A DNA stretch of 18,764 nt from Candidatus Bathyarchaeia archaeon. Lineage in GTDB: Archaea > Thermoproteota > Bathyarchaeia > Bathyarchaeales > Bathycorpusculaceae. This document shows positions 4,501 to 18,764 of this stretch, piece by piece. Each line of letters opens with the position of its first letter. The stretch's first letter is position 1. The DNA lies in assembly GCA_037481775.1 (NCBI GenBank), contig JBBFKZ010000026.1, forward strand, positions 1-18,764, given 5' to 3'. The notes beneath the pieces were generated by a model. That model made no database searches. It had not been told where the DNA came from and was given only the letters and a program-made list of their open reading frames with translations. The position numbers and the translations under genes are program-made.

Positions 4501-4934
4501 TCTTCCCTTGAAAGCTGCGAAAGGAAGCATAATTTTGACTTTAGCATAACAGGGATGCTTCCGATGTAAACCAGTTCAGTGTCTTGTTCCCTTCCATCGA
4601 TTACAGGTGTCATTTCAAGGGCTATGGGTGCTGCATACGTGAGATTCCGAAGCCTTGCTTCCATCGGGTAAATTTCATGTTTAGTGCCGTCTACCTCTGT
4701 GACATATGGCCCAGTTATACGCGATTGAGGATCAATAATCCAAACTTGTCCGAGCTTTACTTTATATGGACTTTCGGGAACTTCAATGTCGATTTCGCCG
4801 ACCTCGTCCACCACTTCCTGTAAGCCATGGTCTATGAACTCGTTGTATGAATCAAGGTGCTGCCTTACTAGGCCTTTCTCGTTGAAAAAGGATTTCAACA
4901 AAATGCGTGCATCTTCTTTTGAAAGTTCAGCCAA
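1569..4934 (-). CDS. rpoB: DNA-directed RNA polymerase subunit B (Rpo2), unsplit
   Basis: 1121 aa with [55 protein letters not shown] and a C-terminal CENC...CKIC zinc ribbon. TTG start preceded by GGAGATAGGT. Confidence 0.99.
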
Positions 4935-5650: not shown

Positions 5651-7270
5651 TTGAACAAGATATCTGCAGGAAAAGAACAAAAACTACTAGCCATCTTAGC
5701 TCTAGCTACACTACTACTTTTTATGCAGCAACTTAACGTTACGGTGCAAGCGGCAACAGAGTACCAGAGATACGTCCACACATATTATAATACCCTTAAC
5801 CGTGGTAACTGGACTTACATTGAGAAGCCCATTTTCCCACTTTACCTTAACAAGTCACAAGTACCTATAGGACAGAACTGGACTACTGTTTGCCCACTGG
5901 AAGCCGGCCGCAGTTACCATGTGTACTGCTATGGTGCATGGATAAACACAGGCCCAAAGCCTAAGACAGACTATGACATCTGCGTCTATAACCCAGAAGG
6001 CGCATTAGAGAGCATACATACCGAAGCCGCTGGATTGCCGGAGCATTTGGGCACAACTGCGGATGACGCGTTCTTTGTACCTGCCAGCTCGGGTAACTAC
6101 ACCTTTGTGCTTATGAATGATGCGCGAGAGAGCTATGGTGCTGAACAAGCTACGTTTATGATAATAGAGAATATTGAATGTAACAAGTGGTATGAGCACA
6201 ATGTGACGGGAAAAATAGCTAACGTGCCGACGTTCAGAACTAGTTGGGCTTACGAGTTTATGACTGATAGTGAACGCATAGAAGTTTGGGTGCGCGTTCC
6301 CGACACGCTAGACATGTATGAAGCACGCCTTTATCTAATGAGCAACGCGAAGTCATTAAGGGTAAATAATGTTTCACTACCTTGGGAGCCTGGGCTCTAC
6401 GGCAACTTAAGCGACGTAGGCGGCTACAACCTTGAAAGTGAAGGATACCGTGGCGTAGCATACGCAAGCTGCGAGTTTAATGGTCAAGACATGTATCTGA
6501 ACTATACTCAGCCGTTTCCAGGCAACAATTTGTATCATTTGGTTTTAATTGGCGAACTTGGCGAGGGAACAATAGAATTTCTGGTTAAAACAAAGTTCGA
6601 CGCCGCCTTAATACCCTTGGCGATTCCCCGTAAAGTCACACCTATTGACTCGACAGAGATTGCATACAAGGCAAATAACACAGAGTTAGAGAACGCCACA
6701 CTTAGGTATACAGTTGACAATTGGAAGAATGTAAATGTGATAGAGATGACTGTTAGTAACATGACGTGCAACGCTACAATCCCGCAACAGAAAGCTGGCA
6801 GCTTCGTAGAGTATAAAGTTCAAGCAACAGACATGATGAAAAATCAACTCACCGCTGTGGGAAACTTTACAGTCAAATATCCCTCAGCTGTAACGGACTT
6901 TAATGTCACCCGCACAAAGGTGACTATAGGCGAAAATATAACAGCAATAGGAACACTGTCTGCCGAAGCCGCGGGTGCACCTGTAACAGTCACGTTTACG
7001 TCTGTAAACGCCACAGAAAAACTGCAGTGCAAAGCGCTTGAAAACGGCACTTTCACCGTGAGCTATCAGCCGTTGACCACTGGAACGTGGCTGGTTCAAG
7101 CTGCATTCGCTGGAAATGAAACCGTCTATGAGTGCGAGAGCGCGATTGTGATGGTAACGGTGGAGGAACCCTCATTCCTCTCCCTGTATGGACTATACAT
7201 TGGCGGCGGCGTCGGCGGAAGCCTAGCCGCAGCAGGCGCAGTAGTTTATATAAAGAAGTACAGAGAATAG
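5651..7270 (+). CDS. secreted, C-terminally membrane-anchored beta-rich glycoprotein (PPC-like and Ig-like domains), function unknown
   Basis: N-terminal signal peptide ending VQA. PPC-like motif TDYDICVYNPEG...GNYTFVL. Ig-like C-terminal domain (GTFTVSY...GTWLVQAAFAGN). C-terminal TM followed by KKYRE. More than a dozen N-X-S/T sequons. Confidence 0.8.
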   Translation: MNKISAGKEQKLLAILALATLLLFMQQLNVTVQAATEYQRYVHTYYNTLNRGNWTYIEKPIFPLYLNKSQVPIGQNWTTVCPLEAGRSYHVYCYGAWINTGPKPKTDYDICVYNPEGALESIHTEAAGLPEHLGTTADDAFFVPASSGNYTFVLMNDARESYGAEQATFMIIENIECNKWYEHNVTGKIANVPTFRTSWAYEFMTDSERIEVWVRVPDTLDMYEARLYLMSNAKSLRVNNVSLPWEPGLYGNLSDVGGYNLESEGYRGVAYASCEFNGQDMYLNYTQPFPGNNLYHLVLIGELGEGTIEFLVKTKFDAALIPLAIPRKVTPIDSTEIAYKANNTELENATLRYTVDNWKNVNVIEMTVSNMTCNATIPQQKAGSFVEYKVQATDMMKNQLTAVGNFTVKYPSAVTDFNVTRTKVTIGENITAIGTLSAEAAGAPVTVTFTSVNATEKLQCKALENGTFTVSYQPLTTGTWLVQAAFAGNETVYECESAIVMVTVEEPSFLSLYGLYIGGGVGGSLAAAGAVVYIKKYRE

Positions 7271-7332: not shown

Positions 7333-7451
7333 GCAGCGGTAACCAAGCCAGGTCAAAGGTGAAGGACTCAAGATCGACGCTTTGATCGAAGGCGCCCAGA
7401 TGGGATATCCTTTCCCGTAGGGGTTCGCAGGTTCAAATCCTGCCCGCTGCA
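7333..7451 (+). tRNA. tRNA-Leu (anticodon CAA) with an intron at position 37/38
   Basis: Acceptor stem GCAGCGG/CCGCTGC, D arm ACC...GGT, anticodon stem AAGGA/TCCTT with CT-CAA-G, long variable arm CCCGTAGGGG, T arm GCAGG-TTCAAAT-CCTGC, discriminator A at 7451. A full CCA is not encoded (ACCT). Confidence 0.96.
7373..7406 (+). other. 34-nt tRNA intron with a bulge-helix-bulge splice motif
   Basis: Central 4-bp helix CTCA(7367-70)/TGGG(7401-04), 3-nt bulges AG|A and AT|A, closing TC/GA pairs and an internal CGCTTT/AAGGCG hairpin. Confidence 0.9.
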
Positions 7452-7532: not shown

Positions 7533-7576
7533 TTGTAATACAGTAATGTTTTTAGCTTTCCATGAAATTATTACAA
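7533..7576. promoter_or_regulatory. inverted repeat, probable vapBC autoregulatory operator
   Basis: TTGTAATA (7533-7540) and TATTACAA (7569-7576) bracket a T-rich TATA-like stretch just upstream of the antitoxin start. Confidence 0.5.
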
Positions 7577-7593
7577 CAGTAGTGAAAACATTT

Positions 7594-7815
7594 ATGTCTA
7601 CAACGTTTACGATACGCATACCTCGAGAACTTAAAGAGAAAATGGAGCAGAATCCTGCAGAATGGAGTCAAGAAGTCAGAGCTTTCCTTGAGGAAAGAGT
7701 GAAACAAATCGAATTGATGAAGACACTTCAAGAAATAGGAAAGCGAGCAGAAAAAAGGAAAACAAAAACAGACTCTACAAAACTCATCAGGGAGGACCGA
7801 GAACGCCAAGCCTAA
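7594..7815 (+). CDS. vapB: VapB-type ribbon-helix-helix antitoxin
   Basis: 73 aa from ATG 7594: MSTTFTIRIPRELKEKM...WSQEVRAFLEERV...STKLIREDRE, the typical archaeal RHH antitoxin pattern. Overlaps a PIN-domain gene. Confidence 0.88.
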   Translation: MSTTFTIRIPRELKEKMEQNPAEWSQEVRAFLEERVKQIELMKTLQEIGKRAEKRKTKTDSTKLIREDRERQA

Positions 7816-8237
7816 TTCTTGACTCTAGCATAATCGTGAAGCTTATTCTAAACGAAGCAGGCTCAGAAGAAGCCGCAGTAACAGTCGCCAACGCGCTAAA
7901 GAAAGGATACGCCCTCCACACAGTAGATCTTGCTTTAGCTGAATGCTTGAACGTCATATGGAAGCACATAAGCATAATTAAAGATTTGAAAGCAGAAGAG
8001 GCAAACGGTGCAGTAGAAGACCTTACAAAACTATATGATGGCTTAAAGGTTATTGTTGGGCGTGAAATTGCGGCGGAAGCTATGCACGTTGTGTTAGCCC
8101 AAAACATAAGCGCTTATGACGCACTTTATATCGCAGCAGCACAGAAAATCAACGGCACATTATACACTGCAGACCAAAAACTCTATGCGTTGGCAAGCAG
8201 AAGCGGAAACACAAAATTATTAAAGAGCGAACCATAA
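7803..8237 (+). CDS. vapC: VapC-type PIN-domain toxin (start uncertain, upstream of the ORF-track GTG at 7836)
   Basis: In-frame extension gives (T)PSLILDSSIIVKLILNE. All four acidic PIN positions are present: LILD, LAEC, SAYDAL, LYTAD. Confidence 0.9.
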   Translation, partial: TPSLILDSSIIVKLILNEAGSEEAAVTVANALKKGYALHTVDLALAECLNVIWKHISIIKDLKAEEANGAVEDLTKLYDGLKVIVGREIAAEAMHVVLAQNISAYDALYIAAAQKINGTLYTADQKLYALASRSGNTKLLKSEP

Positions 8238-8418: not shown

Positions 8419-9186
8419 TTAAAGGCTAAAGGCAGGCTCAGAAGCAATCGAAGCCAGAAGCCGATCGGCAGCCGCTTCCTGTTCTGCTGTGTCGCTGATG
8501 GCAAGCCAGCAGCATCCTTCTGCGCCGCAGACGCCGCCGGCAGCTATTAGTTCAGCATCCGCGCCTGTTAGAAGTTTTATAGCTTCGATTTCGGTGAATA
8601 CTTGCCCGGGCATGGGGAATAGGCGGAAGCCGCTTGCGCCGGGCGCGTTAACCTTTTCAGCTAAGCAATGTAAGTCGCCGTTTACGCGTTTTTCCAAGCC
8701 AACGGGCACGATGAGCTTTACGCGGCGGCCGAGCACTGCTTGAAGTGCCACGGCGATGGTGCCTGCTTTCGGGTGCCCTATGAGGAGGGCTGCTTGCTTG
8801 CGTTGTAGATCCACTGCATTGGCGCCTTTCAGTATGACGTCGCCTTCTTTGAGTTCGTCGATTACGTCGGCGATGGTTTTGCCTTTGCGCCATTCGCCTC
8901 GGGTTATTATTACATCGCCGGGGAATTGGGTTTCGTCGTGTAATCGGCCTTCTGTGGTTACTGGTATGCCTGGCGGTAGGGTGATGCCGCGGAAAAAGCG
9001 TTTCCGTGAAAAGCCTGCGGCTTGTCCGATTGAGTTTAGGATTTCTTCGGCTACGTAGCCGTTTGTGGTGCCAGCGACGATGACGAGTGTTCCATTCTTT
9101 AGAGCGCTTGTTACTGCTGGGTGTTTTGTTAGCGCTTTAGCTATTAGGCGTTTTCCGGCTGCGGGTGTGATTATGAATTGTTTCAT
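8419..9186 (-). CDS. conserved hypothetical protein, probable NagB/RpiA/CoA-transferase-like alpha/beta fold
   Basis: 255 aa soluble protein with [27 protein letters not shown] and LIVPVGLEK, resembling the eIF2B/RpiA-like superfamily. The fold is inferred. Confidence 0.7.
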
Positions 9187-9289
9187 AGGCTTGTACTTCC
9201 TTCAGAGTCTTGCGGTAGTATTGTTTTTTGGTGGTAATTAAGTTCTACTGTTGAGCACGTGCCTCTTTAGGAAGACTTTGTTTGGCGTG

Positions 9290-9348
9290 TAGGCTATTTG
9301 TTCGTCAGTTGCAGCGTTGCGTGGCTGGCAGAATAGCTGACGACACGG
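9290..9348. repeat. 59-bp structured direct repeat, copy 1
   Basis: TAGGCTATTTGTTCGTCAGTTGCAGCGTTGCGTGGCTGGCAGAATAGCTGACGACACGG; 48/59 identical, ungapped, to 10019-10077. Confidence 0.85.
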
Positions 9349-9408
9349 TTGTTGAATGTTTTGCTGGATTTTTGTTGTGTATTTGTGTAGTTCATTTCGA
9401 CAATAAAA

Positions 9409-9416
9409 TTTATTAA
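9409..9416 (+). promoter_or_regulatory. TATA box for the 9456 gene
   Basis: TTTATTAA after an A-rich BRE-like run, 40 nt upstream of an ATG that has an AGGAGAG SD-like motif. Confidence 0.55.
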
Positions 9417-9455
9417 GACTTAAGACTAGCTACTTGATACAAAGGAGAGCAAACA

Positions 9456-9905
9456 ATGAGCCTGGCAAAACTCTCAACAAAAACACTACTACTCATAATA
9501 ACCACAGGAGTAATCCTAACCGCCGTCACTACAGGTGCACTTACAGTAACCAAACCAATACCCGCAACAGGCACCATATCAACAATAAACTTAGAAGCCT
9601 ATTTAGACGTTGCATGTAGCCAACCCGTAACATCGATAGACTGGGGAACTATCTCGCCGGGAGCCACAGTAACCAGAACAGTATACTTAAAAAACACTGG
9701 TAGCGTACAAATGACGCTCAGCATGACGCCAAGCAATTGGAGCCCGACAAGCGCAAATGGACCAATAACTATTTTTTGGGATAAAGAAGGTGCAACTTTG
9801 CCGCCTGGTCAAACAACAGCGGCAGTCATTACACTACGTGTCTCAAGCAGCATCAGTGGCATCACAAGCTTCAGCTGCAATATAGTCATAACGGGAACAG
9901 CGTAA
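9456..9905 (+). CDS. small secreted all-beta protein, TasA/CalY-like candidate
   Basis: 149 aa, Thr/Ser-rich. Hydrophobic N-terminus, then GTISTINLEAY and IDWGTISPGATVTRTVYLKNTGSV. Paralogous to 16913-17482. Confidence 0.75.
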   Translation: MSLAKLSTKTLLLIITTGVILTAVTTGALTVTKPIPATGTISTINLEAYLDVACSQPVTSIDWGTISPGATVTRTVYLKNTGSVQMTLSMTPSNWSPTSANGPITIFWDKEGATLPPGQTTAAVITLRVSSSISGITSFSCNIVITGTA

Positions 9906-10257: not shown

Positions 10258-10821
10258 CTAGTGATCTGAACGTCGGTAACGCAGTGGCGGAAAATTTTCA
10301 ACGGCAAAAGAGAAGGTATACAACTCAAGGAAGACCATTCGTAGCTGATCGAACTCATCCATACGCTTTTTGGCTTCGATTGGTTGCTGGCTGGCTTTTT
10401 GTTTGGACCATGCCTCGTAGGCGGCTTCCCATTTCCTCAAGTACTCCATCGGTTCGATGCTGCATATCATGAATAGCTTTTTAAGTCGTTTGAGCAGGAC
10501 GGACTGCTTTTTCTTGGGAATGAAGATGCGGGCTATTTCTGCGTATTGGTTCATTAGTTCAACAGCTTCATCTAGCCTGTTCTGTTCTTTCAACAGTTTT
10601 GCCCTTTCGTAGTACTCGGTGAACAGGTTAATGCGCAGGTAGCCTATCTGCGTTAAAAGGAAGCGCTTCTTTTCCCTTGGTTTAGCGTTGCTTTTAAGGA
10701 ATTGTTTTAGCCAATTCTCGTTTATCAATGGAAAGTCGAATTGCCTGTTTCTGACGGCAGCCTTGTTCAGCTCGTCAAGTTTCTGCTTAAGTGTTTGAAA
10801 AAGTTCTTCAAGTTCTTCCAA
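10258..10821 (-). CDS. hypothetical highly charged alpha-helical protein
   Basis: 187 aa, K/E/L-rich and protein-like, with a TATA-like TTATATGT upstream. No family recognised. Confidence 0.65.
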   Translation of the reverse strand: MEELEELFQTLKQKLDELNKAAVRNRQFDFPLINENWLKQFLKSNAKPREKKRFLLTQIGYLRINLFTEYYERAKLLKEQNRLDEAVELMNQYAEIARIFIPKKKQSVLLKRLKKLFMICSIEPMEYLRKWEAAYEAWSKQKASQQPIEAKKRMDEFDQLRMVFLELYTFSFAVENFPPLRYRRSDH

Positions 10822-10876
10822 GGTTTTTTCTTTTAATTTTAAGCCCTCCCCTCGAAAAGCGTTTCAGGCTCTACAT

Positions 10877-10892
10877 ATAATAAGCTTATTAT
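10877..10892. promoter_or_regulatory. 16-bp perfect palindrome overlapping a TATA-like box
   Basis: ATAATAAGCTTATTAT, overlapping minus-strand TTATATGT (10873-10880) upstream of the 10821 gene. Confidence 0.45.
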
Positions 10893-10906
10893 TAGGTTTG
10901 TGTGGG

Positions 10907-11107
10907 CTAGAAAGGTTGGAAGATTCGCATAACAACTGTAGCCATGAAGGCTATCCCTAAGGCTAAGGCTACAACTCGGAGGCGCTTTTTTTCGATCATA
11001 ATCTGCGGTTCTGTGATGGAGCTTATTATTTCTGTGGTTATAAGCAGGATTATCGCCATGACGGCTAGCCAAAGGCTTATGTCGGATAAAGTCATTGGAA
11101 AATTCAT
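10907..11107 (-). CDS. small two-TM membrane protein
   Basis: 66 aa with two hydrophobic helices separated by EPQIMIEKKRLR. ATG lies 2 nt after the upstream gene's stop. Confidence 0.8.
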   Translation of the reverse strand: MNFPMTLSDISLWLAVMAIILLITTEIISSITEPQIMIEKKRLRVVALALGIAFMATVVMRIFQPF

Positions 11108-11109
11108 TG

Positions 11110-11964
11110 TTAGCTCTCCACCAGCTGATACCAGAGTTCAACTGTCTCGCCATCAGGCACTATATTGTCCTTCTGGAGGGTAACTGTTTTTCCTGAGGCT
11201 TTGGCTATGGCGCATGCAATGGCGCTTGCAAGCGGGCAGCCTAGATAGTGTATGCTCTTAAGCTCTTCTGTTATGTAGAGGTTTCGATACGGCGAACCTA
11301 TCATTTTGAGGTAAAATCCGTTGTCTTCCTGTTTTATTTCCACTTCTTTTGCCAGTTGCAGGTTTTCAGTTATCAGCGGCGGCAGGATTTCTAATAGTTC
11401 GGTTAGTTGGAGTTTTGTTATGTCTCTTTTCAGTTCTTTTTCCAGCTGTTCTAGCAAGCCTAATCCTGGTGGAGCCACGCAGATGCCGTTTGGGTTTTCG
11501 AGTAGGAATTTGCTTTTGGCTAATTCCTCGATGGATGGCATTCCGCTGGTGCTTGCAGAGATGAAGACTACGCTTTCCTTGAGTCCTTTTAAGTGCTGTG
11601 GGAGATATACATCCTTCGGGTAAGAGGGGATGTAGTAGGCTTTTCCGGTAATTTGTAGGTCTCGGAGTATTCTGTCTGTGGTTAAGTACTCTGATAAGGC
11701 TGTTGAGGTGAGCATGCTGCTTGCGACATATCTTGCGGGTTTTATGAAGAAGAAGAGGACTCCCCAGAAGGTTAGGCTTAAGCCGATGAATGCGAGTGTA
11801 GTGGAATTTGCTATTATGGCATATGCTAATGCCAGTGCTCCTGGAATTAGAAGCGCTAAACCCACTTTTACCGAGGGTACATTGGCCTTGCCTGATTTTG
11901 CCTTCGGATTTTCAACCACGTTTTTTTGAGGGGCAATTTCAGTGTTTTGATTTTGCGCGCACAT
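11110..11964 (-). CDS. membrane-anchored protein with a V4R-like C-terminal domain
   Basis: Two N-terminal TM helices, then a soluble domain with APPGLGL and GCPLASAIACAIAKASGK, reminiscent of V4R/heme-NO-binding-like folds (inference). Confidence 0.7.
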   Translation of the reverse strand: MCAQNQNTEIAPQKNVVENPKAKSGKANVPSVKVGLALLIPGALALAYAIIANSTTLAFIGLSLTFWGVLFFFIKPARYVASSMLTSTALSEYLTTDRILRDLQITGKAYYIPSYPKDVYLPQHLKGLKESVVFISASTSGMPSIEELAKSKFLLENPNGICVAPPGLGLLEQLEKELKRDITKLQLTELLEILPPLITENLQLAKEVEIKQEDNGFYLKMIGSPYRNLYITEELKSIHYLGCPLASAIACAIAKASGKTVTLQKDNIVPDGETVELWYQLVES

Positions 11965-12054
11965 TTTGTTTTACTGCTCGCTTTTTTGGTTGGCTGTCTC
12001 ATGAGCTTTTTGCTCTTGATGGAGATGGCTTCGTTCCTATTAAGTTTTCAGAAA

Positions 12055-14106
12055 TTAAATCAGACTTTTCCAAACAAGTTTTGGCTTGATTCCGCTGGCA
12101 TTGAGGTCGGGTTTTATGAAGCCGTATTCGTGTAGGCGTTTTAGTTTTTGCGTGAGAATATCTGGTTGCATGGTGCTTCCGGTTTTGTTTTTGATGGCGT
12201 TGTTGATTTCTTCGATTGTAAAGGCGTGTTTTTCTTTGCTTAGCTCGGAAATTGTTTGGAGTAGCATTTTGTCTTCCGGTGAGGCGAAGTTATTGAAGAT
12301 TTTTAGGTTGCTTGTTCTTCTACGCCAGTCGTCGGCATATTGCGATGTCTTCGCGACTATTATTACGGCTATGGAGAGAGCTAGAAGTGCTTGTTGGGCG
12401 GGGATGCCTAGTGATATTAGCGATTGGGTTTTGATTGGCTGCCAGTGTGAGGCTATGGCTTCTCCGAAGCTTAAAAGTTTGTCCTCATATTGTGGATAGC
12501 CTGTTGTGTTATATGTTAGGATTACGAGGCTTATACGCACATATTTTTGTTGTACTGTGAGGCCGGTTTTGAACGTTGCTTTCTCATACCAGTAAAGCGT
12601 TACTTGCGTGTAGTTTTCGGGTGTGGTGAAAACGAGGTATCGTGCTGTTATCGGAAATCCTTCTTCGGTTAATTGTATGTCTTTGGAGTCTATGACGGAA
12701 ACTATGGGGTATTTGCCTTGCGCGGTTTGGTAGGAGATTAGGCATACTTCCCAGTTGTGTAGGTTTGAGATGCTGTCTGCGCTGCCAATCATGACGAAGA
12801 CGGCTGGTTCTGAGGAGTTCGCTGGAATGTATGCGTATACCAGCGAGGCGTCTTGTTTTGCGATTCGTTCGTATTCAACGTCGCGATATAGGAATTTAAG
12901 GGTATAGTCTGGGATTTGTGGGAAGATGTTTGCGGTGTTTTCCCATGTTGAGGTAACTTCTATCTGGTTTTGTGCAACGGCGAAGGTTGGCGCGTTAATG
13001 CTTAAGGCTACTGCGGGAAGCACCAGCAATAGAATAAGTAGTTTTGCCCAGAATTTTGAAGAAGGCTTCGCCGGCGAGGTAGCGAGGAATTTTCCGCAGT
13101 TCAGGCAGAAGCTTTGGTTTTTTTGTGGTTTTTCGCATTCTGGGCAGGAGGTAGCTGCAGTTTTTTGTAGGAAGCGTACTTTTAGAAGTTTTTCGGCTAT
13201 GAAGAGGGTTATGAGCATGCCGATGAATGTTAGGATTAAGCCGGCAATGGTGTGGAAGATTAGCATGGCGATTTCTTCGCCGAAGAGGTAGGCCGCGGAG
13301 AGTATGGTGGATATGCGGACTATGTTTAATGTTTCGAATATGGCGAAGCCTATGGCGAAGATTAGCAGTTTCTTTATGGTTGATGTGGAGACGATTAGGG
13401 TGAGGAAGAATGCGAACATGATGAAGGCTATCAGCGTGTATATGCCAGAGCACGGCAGGTCAACGGTGAAAGTGGCAGGCTGACCTCCTACAGTCGTGAG
13501 CAGCAGTGTTGGTGCTCCGTAGGCTGTAGTTAATTCGACGGGGACACCAAAGGTTTTGAGCAGCGTGTAGGAGGCTTGGGTGTTAACATTCGCCAAGTTT
13601 CCGCCTATTGTCTGCATGATCTCGTTGGGTATGGGCACTAAGAATAGAAGGATTAAAAGGGGTAGGATGATTATTCTTAATGTTTTCATGTTAAAGAGGA
13701 TGAGTACCACGCCTGAGATGAATAGTGGTAGGGAAAGTAAGTGATATGCTAGGGGGCTAAAAGTGTGAGAGCCATACCAGTAGATGAGGAAAGCGATGAG
13801 ACAAAGACTTAATCCAACAAGCTCGTCCATGAACTTGATTTTTGGCTTTTTCTGCACTTCATCTAAGACTAGTGAAGCTGTGAACAAGTCTTTTCTCTGG
13901 TATAATAGGAAGCCTAAGAAAAAGGGTATTAGAACAACATGAGAAAGAGCTTCCGCGTTTAGCGCTTCGTTTGCGATGATTTCTAGGTCACGCCAGTAAA
14001 CCAGAACAATTAGCAATATTATTAGCGCAGTTGCCAGAATATGTGGATAGTAGACTTTTGCCTCATTTACTGATTCGGTAAGCTTTCTCATAAATGTTAC
14101 ATCCAT
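12055..14106 (-). CDS. exosortase/archaeosortase family protein fused to zinc-ribbon, EpsI-like and wHTH-like domains
   Basis: About 8 N-terminal TM helices with the triad motifs VDLPCSG (Cys at 13450-52), LNIVRI (Arg) and IFHTIAG (His), plus SHVVLIP and LVPIP. Then CPEC...CLNC, a TM, an extracellular domain with LHNWEVCL and LYWY, another TM and a basic helical C-terminus. Start could be 14091. Confidence 0.9.
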   Translation of the reverse strand: MDVTFMRKLTESVNEAKVYYPHILATALIILLIVLVYWRDLEIIANEALNAEALSHVVLIPFFLGFLLYQRKDLFTASLVLDEVQKKPKIKFMDELVGLSLCLIAFLIYWYGSHTFSPLAYHLLSLPLFISGVVLILFNMKTLRIIILPLLILLFLVPIPNEIMQTIGGNLANVNTQASYTLLKTFGVPVELTTAYGAPTLLLTTVGGQPATFTVDLPCSGIYTLIAFIMFAFFLTLIVSTSTIKKLLIFAIGFAIFETLNIVRISTILSAAYLFGEEIAMLIFHTIAGLILTFIGMLITLFIAEKLLKVRFLQKTAATSCPECEKPQKNQSFCLNCGKFLATSPAKPSSKFWAKLLILLLVLPAVALSINAPTFAVAQNQIEVTSTWENTANIFPQIPDYTLKFLYRDVEYERIAKQDASLVYAYIPANSSEPAVFVMIGSADSISNLHNWEVCLISYQTAQGKYPIVSVIDSKDIQLTEEGFPITARYLVFTTPENYTQVTLYWYEKATFKTGLTVQQKYVRISLVILTYNTTGYPQYEDKLLSFGEAIASHWQPIKTQSLISLGIPAQQALLALSIAVIIVAKTSQYADDWRRRTSNLKIFNNFASPEDKMLLQTISELSKEKHAFTIEEINNAIKNKTGSTMQPDILTQKLKRLHEYGFIKPDLNASGIKPKLVWKSLI

Positions 14107-14178
14107 AATAGCTTAAGTTGAAAAATAACAATGGACTAATTTAGGGATTATTCTTCGAAAAAAGTAAAGAAAGGTAGG

Positions 14179-14748
14179 TTAAATTGGCAGAGATCGGGGT
14201 TTTCGTAATGCCATGTAAGCGCCAAAAGCGACTATCATTGCAGTTGTCGCTATCACGGTACCTAACGGAACCTCGGGGATAACCTGCTCTGGAACATTCC
14301 AGCAGAAAGTCACATGAGAAATGCCCTTTCCGGCCGGTGCGTCCAGATCTGTATCGCCAGTGGTTGGTGGAATATATTCATATAAATAAGCTGTTGATAG
14401 GCCGCCGCTGGAATCGCTTTCGCTATGCCTCCCTGTTTCGGCTCTCCCCGTTTTGACTATTACCGCGCTGATAGGCAGTGTTGACGTCCAATTAAATGTA
14501 TAGCCGTCTTTGCTGGTAACGGTTATAGTGTTGCCGTTGACTGTTGCAGTGAAGGAATTAGGAGAATCTTCAACCCAAGAGTCAAACTTGTAGCTATAAC
14601 TGAAACTTGAAGCATAAACTTGCTCCCAACTATTTGACTATGGAGATATAAGTGTTGGTGTAACCGAAGCAGCCATTGCAGTTGCAATTCCTACTGTCAA
14701 AAGAAGCATCGTTATAATAAACCCTATACTAGCAGATTTGTTTTTCAC
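14179..14748 (-). pseudogene. secreted protein with a VIPEVPLGTV sorting tail, interrupted by an in-frame TAG at codon 37
   Basis: Manual translation from GTG 14748: MKNKSASIGFIITMLLLTVGIATAMAASVTPTLISP*SNSWEQ...SAVIVKTG...GKGISHVTFCWNVPEQVIPEVPLGTVIATTAMIVAFGAYMALRKPRSLPI. 190 codons in one frame, TAG at 14638-14640, GAGGAG SD-like motif upstream. Confidence 0.85.
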
Positions 14749-14786
14749 TTCCTCATTTCTCCTCATTTAAGTAAAGCGAAAACGCA

Positions 14787-14794
14787 CTATATAA
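14787..14794 (-). promoter_or_regulatory. TATA box for the 14748 gene
   Basis: Minus strand TTATATAG about 40 nt upstream of the GTG start. Confidence 0.55.
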
Positions 14795-15105
14795 GAGTTT
14801 ATAGATAAGTAATATAGAAAAGTTTGAATTTGTTCTATTCTTACGCAGTTTTGATATTCGAAAATGCAAGTTTTTAAGTCATTTCAATTAGACTTTTAAT
14901 ATTACAAAACCCCGATTCATTATCGGATTTATCTATTGTAGCTGAACACGGAATGCCCAGAAAAACAGGCGCAAAGCAAAAATGTATAAGTGTAAATGTA
15001 GAAACAAAAACAGAAAAAAGTTCTTCAAGGGTTTTTCAAAGCCCGCTTCAGCCTAAACTCGTGCCTTCTTAGGAAGGGTTCATTACCATTGAACCGACAA
15101 GCTTA

Positions 15106-16002
15106 CTAAGGGATGTTTAGCTTGAGTTTTTTAGTCTTTGCTATGAAAGCGAGGAAGCAGGCGCCAACCGCGGCTACTGTTCCCAAAGGCAGTTCTGGAA
15201 TAACATTGATTTCTTTCAGCACACAGAGGTTTGTTGTTGTGGTTAATCCTATCTGATCGTCTATGCCAATTAGGTCTTGAGTGCAATCGCTGTGGAGGTA
15301 CTGCGTCGGCCAGACGCCTCGGGTCCAAGCCTTAACTTTTATTACCGTTCCGATTTGGGATGGAGCTGTTAAAGTTACTGCTGCTATGCCTGTAGCATCA
15401 GTTAAAGCCTCAAGTTGGCTTAGTGTTCCACCCACCGCCTCGAATTTAATCTTGACATTGGCTCTGCCGTTGCCGTTGCCATCTGCGAGTTTGACTTTCA
15501 ATACCACGCTTTCACCTGGGCCCATAACGTTCGGCGCATTAACCCATTGCAGGGTATCGCCGTTTCGGCAGACATCCTTGCCTGTGGCTTCCGCAGCAAG
15601 AGAATTACCATATGGTGAAGGGTTAGAGCCGCTGAGGATTTTCCAAATGGCGCCTTGAACATCAGCTGCTTCATCATTGCTTTGCGGCGGATCATGCCAT
15701 GAGAGGACATAGGCAATAGCACGCCAAGTAGGCGTATCTGGGGCGCTCGTCTTGGTGAATGTGTAGGAGTGCCCGATGTAGAGATTGACGTTGTATTCCA
15801 TGCAGTATGCCCTAGTAGATGTACCAGAATATTGGATGAGGATTTCTCCCGCCCAGTAAGTTTTATTATAATTGTGCGTAAACGTTTTGCCTTTGCCTGT
15901 TCCGGAGACGTATACGTTAACTGTTTGTGCGGCAACTGTTGAAATGCACAGGATCACTGCTAATAGGCTTAATGCAGTTAAAGCAAATACACTTCTTCTC
16001 AT
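15106..16002 (-). CDS. secreted thioester-domain (TED/TQXA-like) surface protein with an Ig-like insert and a VIPELPLGTV sorting tail
   Basis: Likely start ATG 16002 (GGAGAAGG upstream; signal peptide MRRSVFALTALSLLAVILCISTVAA). Motifs RAYCME, DVQGAIWKIL, invasin/Big-like TDATGIAAVTLTAP and TQDLIG, then NVIPELPLGTV-TM-KTKKLK. Confidence 0.8.
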   Translation of the reverse strand: MRRSVFALTALSLLAVILCISTVAAQTVNVYVSGTGKGKTFTHNYNKTYWAGEILIQYSGTSTRAYCMEYNVNLYIGHSYTFTKTSAPDTPTWRAIAYVLSWHDPPQSNDEAADVQGAIWKILSGSNPSPYGNSLAAEATGKDVCRNGDTLQWVNAPNVMGPGESVVLKVKLADGNGNGRANVKIKFEAVGGTLSQLEALTDATGIAAVTLTAPSQIGTVIKVKAWTRGVWPTQYLHSDCTQDLIGIDDQIGLTTTTNLCVLKEINVIPELPLGTVAAVGACFLAFIAKTKKLKLNIP

Positions 16003-16042
16003 TTGTGAAGCCTTCTCCGAGCATGAGCTTTGATGCGGCAAG

Positions 16043-16050
16043 TATTTAAA
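16043..16050 (-). promoter_or_regulatory. TATA box for the 16002 gene
   Basis: Minus strand TTTAAATA about 40 nt upstream of ATG 16002, which supports the shorter start. Confidence 0.6.
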
Positions 16051-16118
16051 CATTGATGAAAGAGGCTTATAGAACAAAGCAAAAATGTTCCATACGTCCA
16101 GTTTACTGAGCGTTATTC

Positions 16119-16802
16119 TCAGAGCGCCGACTTCAAAATTGCCTTGAAGATTTTGAAGCCGTCGGGTAGCGTTTTAAGCCTTGAAACGCCGTTTGCGCGT
16201 TTTTTGCAGCTTATTGGGATTTCTACTAATTTGAAGCCGTTTTTTAGGCTTTTTACTGTTAGCTCTGTTTCAATGTCGAAGCCGTCGGATTCTAGGCTTA
16301 TGTGCTGTAGGAAGTCTTTTTTGAGGGCTCTTAGGCCTGTTTGGCTGTCGGTGATTCTTTTTCCTGTCAGAACCATTATTGTTGCGTTGATGAGGCTGTT
16401 TCCGAACTGGTGAACACTGGATGTGTGGTCTTTTGCTTGGCCTAGGAAGCGCGAGCCGGCTACCACATCGGCGCCGTCAAAAAGCGGAGTTATGAGGTCG
16501 GGGATTTCTTTTGGGTTATGTGATCCGTCTGCGTCGATGGTTATGATTATGTCGCCTTGGGCGTGCTCGAGACCTTTTCTTAGGGCGTAGCCCTTCCCGC
16601 GGTTGCGCGGGTAAGAGACTACTTGAACCTTGTATCTGCTGGCTACTTCTCTTGTGCGATCCTTGGAGCCGTCGTCTACGACGAGGATTTCGTATGGCAT
16701 CTTCAGCGTTTCCAATACTTGCATGGTCTCCTCTACAACATTGCCTATGGATTTTTCTTCGTTATAGGCTGGAATGATAACAGAGAGCACGCTGCGTTGC
16801 AC
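16119..16802 (-). CDS. family 2 glycosyltransferase, DPM1/polyprenol-phosphate glycosyltransferase-like
   Basis: SVIIPAYNEE, VVDDGSKDRT, NRGKGYAL, IDADGSH (DXD), DVVAGSRF, TDSQTGLRA. Probable GTG start at 16802 after a G-rich SD. Confidence 0.95.
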   Translation of the reverse strand: MQRSVLSVIIPAYNEEKSIGNVVEETMQVLETLKMPYEILVVDDGSKDRTREVASRYKVQVVSYPRNRGKGYALRKGLEHAQGDIIITIDADGSHNPKEIPDLITPLFDGADVVAGSRFLGQAKDHTSSVHQFGNSLINATIMVLTGKRITDSQTGLRALKKDFLQHISLESDGFDIETELTVKSLKNGFKLVEIPISCKKRANGVSRLKTLPDGFKIFKAILKSAL

Positions 16803-16912
16803 GAAGACCCCCCTTTCTCTAAACTTGTAAGGTAGGCTTACTTGCAAATAAGGTTTTATGAAGAAAGCGTATAGAAAAGTTTTGAGAATGATCTATAGGA
16901 TACTTCTTGTTT

Positions 16913-17482
16913 TTAATCTGAAGGTAAAGCCTTGATGGTTATGTCAAAAGCAAATTCTTTCACGTTGTTATCTATTACGTAAGTTAAGAAGGCGACATCT
17001 GAGGAGAGGGCTAGGCTTATGGTTACGTAGACTGATTCGCGTGGGTTTATGATTGTATCGTTGTAGTTCCAGGTTATTTTTAGTGGTTGGCTTATGGGTA
17101 GCTGTATGGTAACGTTTTCTCCGCGGTTGTTGCGGAATGTGAAATTTGAGGTAGTGAGGTTCAATTTTATGGGTATGTTGCTTTGGCTCTTAATGTAGAA
17201 GGAGTTGTTTGCTATAGTGCCTAGGTAAAGTGTGCCCCAGTCGAGGTATTGGTGGCCGTCTTGGCTTAGGTGTATGTCTCCGCCGTAGGCTTCTACGCCT
17301 ATTACGCGGATTATGCCGAAGCTGGGGAAGCTTGTGTTGTGATAGCTGCTTAGCCAGATGGAAGCCAACATGCTTAGAAGCAAAGTTAAGCCTGAAACGA
17401 TTACTATTAGCAGTATGGTTTTCTTTGAGCGATGAAGTAGCTGGAGCAGCGAGTTAATGTAATACTTCAATTCATAAACCAT
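16913..17482 (-). CDS. secreted or membrane-anchored beta protein, paralog of 9456-9905 (TasA/CalY-like candidate)
   Basis: N-terminal TM, then GIIRVIGVEAY, LDWGTLYLG...FYIKSQSNIP, ITWNYNDTIINP...VTISLALSS, FAFDITI. Several N-glycosylation sequons. Confidence 0.75.
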   Translation of the reverse strand: MVYELKYYINSLLQLLHRSKKTILLIVIVSGLTLLLSMLASIWLSSYHNTSFPSFGIIRVIGVEAYGGDIHLSQDGHQYLDWGTLYLGTIANNSFYIKSQSNIPIKLNLTTSNFTFRNNRGENVTIQLPISQPLKITWNYNDTIINPRESVYVTISLALSSDVAFLTYVIDNNVKEFAFDITIKALPSD

Positions 17483-17523
17483 CTCATTTAATACATGCGA
17501 AAGCCTAAATAGTTACCGGAAAA

Positions 17524-18764
17524 TTATGCGTGGATCCCAGCGGCGCCTAAAATTTTCTCCATTGCTGCGAGGGGATGTTTAGAATTTTTGAGATTAACCC
17601 TAAGCCTGAGAAGAGGTTTGTCAGATTTTTTATGTCGCTTGAGGTTATGGCGCCGATGAGCGGCGCTAAGCTCAGATACGCCAGTATGAAGGCGACGCCG
17701 CCTATGGCGAGTTCTATCCAGTCTGCGAATGCAGTAAGGCTTATTGCGAGGAAAGCTACGGCGGCGGCTATGGCTGCGGCAGCGAGGATCTTAAGTGAAG
17801 CGGCGAGGTTGATTTTGGCGTTATAGTTTTTCCAAACCCAATGCAATCCGATAAATATGGCTGGAGCCCTAGAAGCTATGCTTCCTATTATTAGTCCGAC
17901 TATTCCGTATGTGGGAATTAGCAGGAAGGCTAAGGGTATGCCGAATGCGAGTGTTATGAGGCTTAGTTTCATTTGGATTTTTGTTTCGTCGATGCCTGTG
18001 AGGAAGCTGCCTATGCTGAGGTTGCCGATGAGGGCGTGGAGGTTGCCGATTACGTATAGGGTTAGTAAGTATGGTGCGGTGGCCCATTTCTCTCCGAAGA
18101 TGGTGCTTATCATCGGCTGTGAGAGCGCCATCATTGCGGTTGTTATTGGAACTAAAACTATTGTGGTGTATTTAACTGAGGATTCGAAAACGGTTTGCAG
18201 TAGTTCGCTTTCTTCATGCGGGTTTATTTTTGAGAATGCGGAGAAGAGCACTGTTGAGATTGGGGTTGTGATGAATGTTAGTATGGTGGCGAATTGGGTT
18301 GCGACTTGGTAGTTTCCGATTGCGGCGTCTGTGCAGTAGATTACCATCAGGAAGGAGTAGAATTATAGTAGAAAGCCGCTTATGATGCCTGCTATTGAGA
18401 GGGGAAACCGTAGTTCAGCATGGCTTTCAGGGTTTGAATGACGCTTGTTTTTTGTGTGTTGTTTGGCTTCAGTTTGCGGGTTATTTTTAGGTAGAGCAGT
18501 AGAAGGCTGATTGCGGCTGCGGCTGCGAAGGCTATGGTGTAGCCGATGGTTGCGCCTAGGGCGCTTAATCCCAGAAACACGAGCAGCGGTGAAGCAACGG
18601 TTTTTACGGCGGCTTGAAGGATGTTGGTTATACTTGTTAGCGCCATTCGCTCGAAGCCGGTGAAGCACGCTTGCGCCGCAGTTAGCAGTGCGCCTGTGAG
18701 TATGGTGGTGGAGGCTATGGCGATGAGCGGTGCTGATTCGGGTCTGTTGAAGATGGCAGTGGAG
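17524..18764 (-). pseudogene. oligosaccharide/polysaccharide flippase (Wzx/RfbX, MOP superfamily), 5' end outside the window, apparently disrupted
   Basis: Continuous multi-TM sequence (FNRPESAPLI...FTGFERM...MLNYGFP|LSIAGIISGFLL*FYSFLMVIY...IGNYQVA...LLIPTYGIVG) broken by a frameshift at G4 18401-04, a TAA at 18363-65 and a probable frameshift at G4 17571-74. Confidence 0.85.

Follow-up and report, generated by a model that had tools for sequence, protein, structure and literature searches.

The window analysed here, an 18,764-nucleotide stretch of a Candidatus Bathyarchaeia contig (JBBFKZ010000026.1), carries on its minus strand a gene for an exosortase-family enzyme, lying directly downstream of genes for two proteins with C-terminal sorting tails (termed here the small and the larger cargo) and in the company of a GT2 glycosyltransferase, a flippase and further conserved neighbours (Table 1). 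An earlier note, made from the sequence alone, had described this order of enzyme and cargo genes, and the positions and common strand of the three bear it out; the letters of both tails that it quoted are exactly as given.

Table 1. Features of the window in order of position.
Feature	Positions	Strand	Remarks
66-aa two-helix membrane protein	10907..11107	minus	conserved partner
284-aa membrane-anchored DUF7982 protein	11110..11964	minus	assigned by Atlas search
Exosortase-family enzyme, 683 aa	12055..14106	minus	Pfam PF09721 and NCBIfam TIGR04178
Winged-helix-like cytoplasmic C-terminal domain of enzyme, residues 608-683	12058..12285	minus	predicted from AF2 model
Ectodomain of enzyme, residues 372-560	12427..12993	minus	between membrane helices 9 and 10
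His285 codon of enzyme	13252..13254	minus	invariant in family alignment
Arg264 codon of enzyme	13315..13317	minus	invariant in family alignment
Cys219 codon of enzyme	13450..13452	minus	motif DLPCSGIY; presumed nucleophile
Small cargo gene, 195 codons	14179..14766	minus	signal peptide, beta-rich body, sorting tail
Small cargo sorting tail	14182..14292	minus	PEQVIPEVPLGTV, membrane helix, RKPR
In-frame TAG, codon 43 of small cargo	14638..14640	minus	
Larger cargo, 298 aa	15106..16002	minus	signal peptide, class II-like thioester domain, sorting tail
Larger cargo sorting tail	15109..15213	minus	EINVIPELPLGTV, membrane helix, KTKKLK
GT2 glycosyltransferase	16119..16847	minus	Pfam Glycos_transf_2, 123.3 bits
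189-aa protein, N-terminal membrane helix and beta-rich body	16913..17482	minus	conserved neighbour
MOP/Wzx-type flippase	17547..18763	minus	runs past window end; Pfam Polysacc_synt_3, MurJ, Polysacc_synt

The enzyme matches the Pfam model Exosortase_EpsH at 114.8 bits (cutoff 25.7) and, in the NCBIfam scan, the generic signature TIGR04178 at 50 bits (cutoff 23). The Cys/Arg/His triad earlier read as intact is unchanged in all 113 aligned family members, and by likeness to Cys173 and Arg214 of ArtA, as given in the available text of PMC9263693, Cys219, Arg264 and His285 would be the catalytic residues. The domain layout was drawn from the order of helices and strands in an AF2 model (pLDDT 86.5, pTM 0.85), in which a catalytic core of eight helices (residues ~1-310) is followed by a cytoplasmic Zn ribbon (CxxC...CxxC, residues 319-339), two membrane helices (350-371 and 565-590) that enclose the ectodomain, and a C-terminal domain of three helices and then a beta hairpin. 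Within the 113-member alignment Cys321 of the ribbon is invariant and Cys324, Cys334 and Cys337 are conserved in at least 90%; the winged-helix-like segment is likewise kept among family members, L658 and W679 without exception. The ectodomain is probably EpsI-like, a lead drawn from an ESM Atlas feature search whose best named clusters were DUF3485/EpsI (score 0.86, 169 of 256 features); no NCBIfam or Pfam model, those for EpsI included, matched residues 341-600, and a comparison of the ectodomain with PDB structures gave nothing at E <= 0.001. For the winged-helix-like domain, Foldseek returned weak matches to CodY chains (E 0.018-0.13) and Pfam sub-threshold matches only.

The two cargoes have unrelated bodies and nearly the same tail, as had been claimed, because BLASTP similarity between them is confined to the tail (13 of 21 identities, E 2e-5), which in both consists of VIPE[VL]PLGTV, a membrane helix and a basic end. 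Against a profile HMM built from 39 seed tails, theirs among them, the tails of the small and the larger cargo score 49.4 and 42.3 bits, respectively. The body of the small cargo bears the motifs PISAVIVK and ISHVTFCW, and those of its 27 homologues that carry a name are without exception called "hypothetical protein".

By fold and motifs, the larger cargo resembles adhesins with a class II thioester domain. Its AF2 model (pLDDT 87.4) places a beta sandwich within the thioester domain, and class II thioester domains fill the first four places among the Foldseek matches in the PDB (E 9.5e-8 to 8.2e-6), with 6fwy, 6fwv and 6fx6 as the best. All 13 sequences compared keep C67 (in YCME), Q116 and W120 (in VQGAIW) and Q242 (in TQDLI). 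Compared with the TIE adhesins of Gram-positive bacteria, and following the motif definitions in the available text of PMC6194298, YCME fits the [YFL]C-hydrophobic-hydrophilic motif and VQGAIW is a form of the TQXX-hydrophobic-W motif, while Q242, past the inserted beta sandwich, is a candidate bond-forming Gln; a C-terminal sorting signal is a further likeness. The larger cargo differs from those adhesins in its archaeal host, in a tail of exosortase rather than LPXTG type, in having no isopeptide-domain stalk, and in a Pfam TED score of 19.4 bits, below the cutoff of 22 (Big_1, at 32.1 bits, is also sub-cutoff); the thioester bond is putative. With that fold and those motifs, the label "adhesin" in the earlier note is reasonable for this protein; for the small cargo it is tentative.

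Both secreted cargo genes that had been described are present, but the small one is not an open frame: a TAG interrupts it ten residues past the predicted signal-peptide cut. TAG is the ordinary terminator of 5 of the 15 window genes checked, and homologues have at this column Trp (6 of 11), Phe (4) or Leu (1), the two closest having Trp; the stop therefore reads as TGG changed to TAG, by nonsense change or sequencing error. The GT2 and flippase likewise stand in the same run of genes, as had been noted, but the flippase is broken: one base is missing near 18400, and at 18363..18365 there is a TAA, for which the closest locus (L001) has CAA. Three lesions in ~4 kb, in two genes that are both intact in L001 (where the flippase has 528 aa), could mean that the cassette is decaying here, the small cargo and flippase being true pseudogenes and the system partly out of use in this genome even if functional in relatives. 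Decay of cargo does occur, since at another locus (L018) a tail remnant is preceded by many stops. Against this, the genes for the enzyme, larger cargo, GT2, DUF7982 protein and 66-aa protein are all open, errors of sequencing and assembly occur in metagenome contigs, two of the lesions consist of a single transition each, and another contig also encodes the larger cargo, with 100% protein identity (P0122), so that the lineage keeps that cargo. We regard decay as a serious possibility, though not the reading we favour.

Together with related proteins of ~680 aa, the enzyme forms a family that spans Bathyarchaeia and falls into two clades. At E <= 0.001 the family takes in 342 of 7999 scored candidates, and the 120 listed span 633-707 aa; with the N-terminal 315 residues as query, 128 of the 50%-identity representatives were found at E <= 1e-30. 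Of 78 genomic loci fetched, 74 are titled Bathyarchaeota or Bathyarchaeia. A 64-row tree separates clade A, that of the window, from clade B by a branch with SH-aLRT 100, and a tail is present in the locus for 33 of the 39 rows on the window's side as against 1 of 25 opposite.

Neighbourhoods of up to 10 kb on each side of every enzyme were covered, and a first regular-expression pass for tails took in all frames irrespective of position. In 30 of 36 usable clade-A loci, as against 0 of 33 in clade B, the tail HMM (match >= 30 bits) finds, within 2 kb upstream of the enzyme, between one and three genes with the N-[VI]-[VI]-P-[ED]-x-P ending. The 11,615 stop-to-stop frames that all loci yield contain 51 C-terminal matches of >= 30 bits. 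A clade-A enzyme is no more than 2.5 kb away from 49 of them, and 43 precede the enzyme on its own strand. These counts are partly circular because the seeds were drawn from the counted loci (39 of the matches are seeds and 12 are new). In the 39 tails, Asn occupies position -3 in 30, [VI] position -1 in 37 and Glu or Asp position +1 in 36. Cargo bodies across loci are unrelated, and the type of tail follows the clade of the enzyme; the recurrence of this tail class beside clade-A enzymes is more than chance.

These observations bear on the view that the tails are ordinary uncleaved membrane anchors, the exosortase homologue acting on other targets or non-proteolytically, for example as a membrane-tethered regulator that works through its winged helix. 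Cleavage is still a prediction, the cytoplasmic Zn ribbon and winged-helix-like domain lie outside the enzyme's NCBIfam and Pfam domain matches, and 5 of the 36 usable clade-A loci (L004, L008, L009, L022 and L039) have no nearby tail gene. Mere anchoring, however, would not require proteins otherwise unrelated to share a motif at a set spacing ahead of the helix, nor the motif type to change with the enzyme clade, and the invariance of the triad likewise argues against this view, which we judge unlikely.

Other neighbours recur with the enzyme. Its most conserved partner is the DUF7982 protein (assigned at an Atlas score of 0.97, 234 of 256 features, with DUF7982 as best cluster, and without a match in local Pfam or NCBIfam), found in 38 of 42 other clade-A loci, where in 37 cases it follows the enzyme immediately and in the same orientation, as well as in 20 of 36 clade-B loci. 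The 66-aa protein, which has no Pfam match, occurs in 34 of the 42 and 15 of the 36. A homologue of the GT2 is present in 29 of the 42 (26 upstream on the same strand) and one of the 189-aa protein, for which no Pfam or NCBIfam family scored above cutoff, in 30. The GT2 is closest to dolichyl-phosphate hexose transferases, scoring 162.1 bits on the NCBIfam AglJ model (cutoff 325).

The earlier note had proposed scoring against the NCBIfam CTERM and sortase models. None of the specific exosortase or archaeosortase models accepts the window enzyme (score/cutoff in bits: XrtW 92.4/425, XrtA 80.4/208, EpsH TIGR02602 60.3/105.55, XrtD 59/400, ArtC 25.2/100), and each of them also rejects 13 further family members. 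All 67 tails stayed below cutoff on every CTERM model of exosortase or archaeosortase type; the window tails had no match to TIGR03024 or TIGR02595 even at E <= 10, and the best clade-A tail scored 12.4 bits on PEP-CTERM (cutoff 16), while three true PEF-CTERM proteins, run as positive controls with the same tool, scored 38-43 bits (cutoff 23). Close cargo homologues, under NCBI-sourced names, are called "Ig-like domain-containing protein" or "hypothetical protein" and bear no CTERM name.

Such scores weigh against the possibility that the cassette is an already defined pair, either PEF-CTERM with archaeosortase C or PEP-CTERM with XrtA/EpsH, although each has points of likeness. The tripartite window tail begins with I-P-E-x-P, as do the PEF-CTERM tails of P0299, P0302 and P0306, members, from other archaea, of the small cargo's own family in which that tail is genuine (TIGR03024, 38-43 bits); such homologues, of methanogen type, end in EIPEFPT[VI]ALP..QRRK. 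In the window type, x is V, L or Y where PEF-CTERM has F, after the motif comes L-G-T or V-V-G-T where PEF-CTERM has T-[VI]-A-L-P, and the enzyme scores lower on ArtC than on the bacterial-type exosortase models. With respect to PEP-CTERM, the tail has a V-P-E core, the best specific matches of the enzyme are the bacterial models XrtW, XrtA and EpsH, and in sister clade B 4 of 17 tails pass the PEP-CTERM model (20.8-28.0 bits, cutoff 16). A glycosyltransferase and flippase adjoin, as in the exopolysaccharide loci described in the available text of PMC1569441. The scores of the enzyme on these models nevertheless all fall far under the cutoffs, the second proline of P-E-x-P stands one residue later than that of P-E-P, the enzyme has ~680 aa and three added domains relative to XrtA/EpsH, and its host is archaeal where theirs are Gram-negative bacteria. 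The archaeal host is not known to have an outer membrane. We consider an already defined pair very unlikely.

XrtW and XrtD are likewise long proteins, their models having 494 and 486 positions, and to their core an EpsI-like C-terminal domain is fused. Alignments of these models to the window enzyme, reaching residue 507 with XrtW, and to clade-B members continue beyond the catalytic core; the window family differs in its low scores and in adding the Zn ribbon and the cytoplasmic winged-helix-like end. ArtA of Haloferax volcanii, which acts on PGF-CTERM, is the only archaeal relative known from bench work. It cleaves its substrates, a lipid is then attached, and Cys and Arg residues are critical (PMC9263693, PMC6098224). 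Its signal, too, is tripartite, and it serves as our mechanistic model, but its motif is PGF, it is absent from the NCBIfam matches of the window enzyme at E <= 1, and its third critical residue is Arg253 (PMC9263693), where the window family has the invariant His285.

The distinct sortase/signal pair that had been proposed thus stands insofar as no named model fits and the clade tracks the tail, but its I-P-E-x-P core is common to PEF-CTERM. Because it shares that core and a cargo family with PEF-CTERM, the tail is, on sequence comparison, a derivative of a known signal and not unrelated, and the cassette is real and represents a version, as yet without a name, of a type of sorting system already known.

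We think it likely that the window carries a single example of a protein-sorting cassette that is spread across Bathyarchaeia and works as follows. An N-terminal signal peptide would export the cargo, and a tripartite C-terminal tail, N-[VI]-[VI]-P-[ED]-x-P-[LVF]-G/x-T with one membrane helix and a Lys/Arg cluster, would hold it in the membrane. The polytopic exosortase encoded next door would recognise P-E-x-P at the outer membrane face, and, on the analogy of ArtA, Cys219 aided by Arg264 and His285 would cleave at the motif, remove the helix and pass the new C-terminus to an acceptor, fixing the cargo covalently on the cell surface. The acceptor would most likely be a membrane lipid, as with ArtA; alternatively it may be a dolichol-linked sugar that the GT2 next door would make and the flippase would flip. 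Adhesins might be anchored into a glycan matrix, as the earlier note supposed. For the Zn ribbon, ectodomain, winged helix, DUF7982 protein and 66-aa protein, we infer roles by analogy. Since a thioester-domain protein is among its cargoes, the cassette probably presents adhesins capable of covalent reaction, and with it an enzyme branch and a recognition tail that are nameless in the family libraries searched are seen to be conserved across Bathyarchaeia.

The two secreted proteins encoded beside the exosortase, termed here the larger and the small cargo, end in tails that read exactly as the earlier note had written them, and its description of unrelated bodies joined to alike tails was borne out by BLASTP, which aligned the two proteins over the tail only (13/21 identities, E 2e-5). 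Their genes belong to a single minus-strand run spanning 10258..18763, whose members are listed below together with the remaining features of the window and with the recurrence of the partner genes at related loci, in clade A (the window side of this Bathyarchaeia family of ~680-aa enzymes) and in its sister, clade B.

Features of the window, with partner-gene counts at 42 other clade-A and 36 clade-B loci (counts bounded by the flank present at each locus), and clade-B tails that pass the PEP-CTERM model (coordinates of the named locus)
Feature	Coordinates	Strand	Other clade-A loci	Clade-B loci	Remark
RNA polymerase subunit A' (start)	1..1608	-			archaeal split Rpb1 type
RNA polymerase subunit B	1569..4934	-			
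539-aa Ig-like surface protein	5651..7270	+			C-terminal membrane helix and KKYRE
tRNA	7333..7451	+			Rfam, 119 bases, full model, 44.1 bits (cutoff 29)
89-aa ORF	7546..7815	+			precedes PIN-domain gene
PIN-domain protein	7836..8237	+			Pfam, 39.3 bits
187-aa helical protein	10258..10821	-			ninth in transcription order
66-aa membrane protein	10907..11107	-	34/42	15/36	eighth
284-aa protein (DUF7982 homologue)	11110..11964	-	38/42 (37 directly downstream, same strand)	20/36	seventh
683-aa exosortase homologue	12055..14106	-			sixth
195-codon secreted protein (small cargo)	14179..14766	-			fifth
298-aa secreted protein (larger cargo)	15106..16002	-			fourth
GT2 glycosyltransferase	16119..16847	-	29/42	5/36	third
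189-aa membrane-anchored beta-rich protein	16913..17482	-	30/42	7/36	second
MOP/Wzx-type flippase	17547..18763	-	19/42	8/36	first
Clade-B tail, L046	15329..15478				
Clade-B tail, L057	7873..8022				
Clade-B tail, L073	13413..13562				
Clade-B tail, L077	13417..13566				

The DUF7982 assignment derives from an Atlas search (0.97), local Pfam giving no match, and dolichyl-phosphate hexose transferases come closest to the GT2 (AglJ, 162 bits, below the cutoff of 325). Outside the run, the tRNA presumably carries an intron; ARAGORN, unlike Rfam, reported no tRNA on the window. The 89-aa ORF and the PIN-domain gene that follows it look like a VapBC-type toxin-antitoxin pair. The 539-aa Ig-like protein, considered as a third cargo, was set aside, having neither a P-E-x-P motif nor a match to the tail profile described below; it may have a plain C-terminal anchor or belong to another sorting class.

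The window enzyme belongs to no named NCBIfam subfamily. It scored 114.8 bits on Exosortase_EpsH (PF09721; cutoff 25.7) and 50 bits on the generic signature TIGR04178 (cutoff 23), the sole NCBIfam exosortase model passed. In the comparison with sortase models that the earlier note had proposed, every specific model remained below its cutoff: XrtW (NF038142) at 92.4 bits against 425, XrtA (TIGR03109) at 80.4 against 208 (best relative 90.3), the EpsH subfamily (TIGR02602) at 60.3 against 105.55 (best relative 87.2), XrtD (TIGR04152) at 59 against 400, and archaeosortase C (ArtC; TIGR03762) at 25.2 against 100 (best of 13 relatives 32.6). Thirteen further enzymes (six clade-A, seven clade-B) gave the same outcome, with bacterial-type exosortase models outranking archaeosortase models in all 13. 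Of 7999 candidates scored in a word-indexed search, 342 reached E <= 0.001; the 120 of these that were listed measure 633-707 aa, are nearly all from Bathyarchaeia and, where named, are called 'exosortase' or 'exosortase/archaeosortase family protein'. A full HMMER pass of the first 315 enzyme residues over 1.84 billion representatives returned 1111 matches with E <= 0.001, 128 of them at E <= 1e-30; among the best 150 of the 1111, most are 650-720 aa in length and all resemble the same family. Four members (L012, L040, L049 and the database homologue P0012) occur on short contigs in bins titled Thermoproteota, Baldrarchaeota, Desulfobacterales or Fervidobacterium, which may reflect binning error rather than the true range of the family.

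Pairing of this enzyme with the tails was assessed across 78 loci obtained from one scan of species-representative genomes, 74 of which are titled Bathyarchaeota or Bathyarchaeia, with up to 10 kb covered on either side of each enzyme. Counting the window, 43 loci encode enzymes at least 45% identical to the window enzyme and 36 encode enzymes at 31-42% identity; in a maximum-likelihood tree of 64 rows (15 of the 79 being left out as aligned in multiple pieces or over fewer than 560 residues), clades A and B split with an SH-aLRT of 100. A position-blind regular-expression pass in all frames, for P-[EDQY]-x-P followed by a helix and a basic end, found tails mostly directly upstream of clade-A enzymes. 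A profile HMM built from 39 of these tails was then run over 11,615 stop-to-stop frames. At 30 bits or more it matched 51 C-termini, 12 of which were not seeds; a clade-A enzyme is found no more than 2.5 kb away from 49 of the 51, and 43 of the 51 are upstream on the same strand. Among the 36 clade-A loci usable for this purpose (enzyme start present and at least 700 bases upstream), a tail gene occurs within 2 kb upstream in 30, and within 2.5 kb on either side in 31; five (L004, L008, L009, L022 and L039) have no tail gene within 2.5 kb. None of 33 comparable clade-B loci has a gene matching the tail HMM within 2 kb upstream. The invariance of the two prolines in the seed tails is by construction, since the seeds were required to have both; features that the expression did not impose are Asn at position -3 (30/39), [VI] at -1 (37/39) and E or D at +1 (36/39). 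At locus L018, a 76-aa tail-bearing frame upstream of the enzyme is preceded by many same-frame stops (9000..9765) and looks like the remnant of a decayed cargo gene. Clade-A and clade-B enzymes can coexist in one bin, as two pairs of loci (L032 and L066; L019 and L075) each derive from a single assembly, on different contigs.

The same tails were compared with named sorting signals. The two window tails and 67 tails from the loci all fell below the cutoffs of the PEP-, PEF-, PEFG-, PFE-, Loki- and Heimdall-CTERM models. On TIGR03024 (PEF-CTERM, cutoff 23 bits) neither the window tails nor the 67 others gave any match at E <= 10, and on TIGR02595 (PEP-CTERM, cutoff 16 bits) the window tails gave none, the best clade-A tail reaching 12.4 bits. 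Seven of the 67 tails reached the LPXTG_anchor cutoff, at 15.9-17.7 bits and over model positions 12-34 only, which correspond to the helix and basic end; the window tails did not match this model. P0299, P0302 and P0306, three homologues more distantly related to the small cargo, were positive controls: they end EIPEFPT[VI]ALPIAAILGLAFF.QRRK and scored 38-43 bits on PEF-CTERM against the cutoff of 23; in the same scan, four Bathyarchaeia-type small-cargo homologues gave no PEF-CTERM match. The small cargo family thus occurs with two different sorting signals, a genuine PEF-CTERM tail being present on its members in other archaea. Local Pfam was uninformative on tails: the true PEF-CTERM controls were likewise without a sorting-domain match, PF26596 being absent from that copy. 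The proposal of a distinct, unnamed sortase and signal pair consequently stands in part: no named enzyme or CTERM model accepts either member, but the I-P-E-x-P core of the window tail, like its cargo family, is common to PEF-CTERM. Judged by sequence, the window tail is a class separate from PEF-CTERM and is paired with a different enzyme. Tails of clade B are of more than one kind: 4 of 17 tested, of the V-P-E-P-A-T-I-A type, pass PEP-CTERM at 20.8-28.0 bits (cutoff 16), and the other 13 (V-V-P-E-Y-x-x-G and similar) fail it. In the portions of the literature consulted, the PEP-CTERM signal is described for bacteria.

The candidate catalytic residues C219 (in DLPCSGIY), R264 and H285 are invariant in all 113 aligned family members, as is Cys321, with Cys324, Cys334 and Cys337 conserved in at least 90%. 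An AF2 model of the enzyme (pLDDT 86.5, pTM 0.85) shows, in order, a helical core, a short Cys-rich segment, a membrane helix, an alpha/beta ectodomain, a second membrane helix, and a C-terminal part of three helices and a hairpin. The predicted topology would place the N-terminus inside, followed by an eight-helix core and a cytoplasmic Zn ribbon, with the ectodomain outside and a winged-helix-like end inside. The ectodomain alone matched nothing in NCBIfam or Pfam, and the whole model retrieved nothing from the PDB at E <= 0.001 in a fold search; an Atlas language-model feature search likened the ectodomain to EpsI/DUF3485 (0.86, 169/256 features), which we treat as a lead only. A complex prediction of enzyme residues 1-600 with the C-terminal 59 residues of the larger cargo, run without controls, scored 0.00 against a mark of 0.32 and was counted neither for nor against the pairing.

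Cargo bodies differ widely between loci, each window body recurring in only one of the 42 other clade-A loci. Pfam recognises no domain in the small cargo family. For the larger cargo 13 homologues were found, named 'Ig-like domain-containing protein' by NCBI where a name is present. Invariant in 13/13 are Cys67 in YC[MTLI][EQ] (YCME in the window), Gln116 and Trp120 in VQGAIW, and Gln242 in TQDLI. Thioester domains are marked by [YFL]C-hydrophobic-hydrophilic, TQXX-hydrophobic-W and a later Gln, according to the part of PMC6194298 consulted, and the cargo residues fit all three motifs as given there, the choice of bonding Gln being inferred. In a fold search with the AF2 model (pLDDT 87.4), the top four PDB matches were class II thioester domains (6fwy, two chains; 6fwv; 6fx6) at E 9.5e-8 to 8.2e-6 and probability 1.00, with low query-normalised TM scores of 0.32-0.35. 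The Pfam TED model (PF08341) gave 19.4 bits, below its cutoff of 22; precomputed annotation places PF08341 in one homologue, P0130. Because motifs and fold match and the TED score lies below cutoff, we call the larger cargo thioester-domain-like, with a putative bond.

Two lesions in the run had been overlooked in the earlier note. The small cargo has an in-frame TAG as its codon 43 (14638..14640), at a column where homologues have Trp (6/11, including the two closest), Phe (4/11) or Leu (1/11). Reading it as pyrrolysine or another reassigned TAG was rejected, because TAG is the ordinary stop of 5 of 15 window genes and the homologues have Trp or Phe; the likely cause is a TGG-to-TAG change or an error in sequencing. 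One base is missing from the flippase gene near 18400, and a TAA interrupts it at 18363..18365; at L001, the closest locus (enzyme 81% identical), the TAA is matched by CAA and the gene is intact, at 528 aa. Between the two cargo genes lies a 339-base AT-rich gap (14767..15105; G+C 0.39 in the block 14001..15000), so the small cargo and enzyme may have their own promoter.

The portions of PMC9263693 and PMC6098224 consulted describe Cys173, Arg214 and Arg253 as critical residues of Haloferax volcanii ArtA, and the attachment of a lipid after cleavage. By analogy with ArtA, Cys219 would cleave the cargo at the P-E-x-P motif and the cleaved cargo would pass to a lipid; an alternative acceptor would be a dolichol-linked sugar, in keeping with the nearest relatives of the GT2. 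As in known exosortase systems, an exosortase is accompanied by a dedicated C-terminal signal; the window system differs from them in its own enzyme branch, motif, added domains and partner genes. A broader joint reading, which we offer tentatively and think unlikely to hold in full, is that the system would be a Bathyarchaeia counterpart of the sortase-anchored thioester adhesins of Gram-positive bacteria, a class II-like warhead bonding its target covalently while a bacterial-type exosortase fixes the other end covalently; that the enzyme would double as a sensor, linking surface cargo processing to gene expression through its EpsI-like ectodomain, Zn ribbon and membrane-tethered winged helix; and that a cargo family would have passed between the clade-A system and methanogen ArtC/PEF-CTERM. 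Were such passage true, tails would be modules exchanged among sorting enzymes that are not orthologous; the occurrence of one cargo family with either a window-type tail or PEF-CTERM makes modular signal exchange testable.

In the open-access literature searched, we found no report of this Bathyarchaeia sorting system; the passages retrieved for exosortase and Bathyarchaeota concerned ANME archaea, and no link to Bathyarchaeota was found in them. The open-access texts consulted, including parts of PMC12617251, likewise yielded no report of an archaeal thioester domain, and Gram-positive bacteria are the only group named for covalent thioester adhesins in the portions of literature surveyed (PMC6194298 among it). 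A thioester-domain cargo would take covalent adhesins beyond Gram-positive bacteria. An archaeal class possesses bacterial EpsH-type exosortases and, in the sister clade, genuine PEP-CTERM tails. Bathyarchaeia rank among the most abundant uncultured archaea of sediments, and to our knowledge almost nothing is known of their cell surface. The family-wide conserved cassette offers a direct route to listing their surface-anchored proteins, and the tail HMM, combined with an HMM of the clade enzyme, would let many proteins now called 'hypothetical' or 'Ig-like' be re-annotated.
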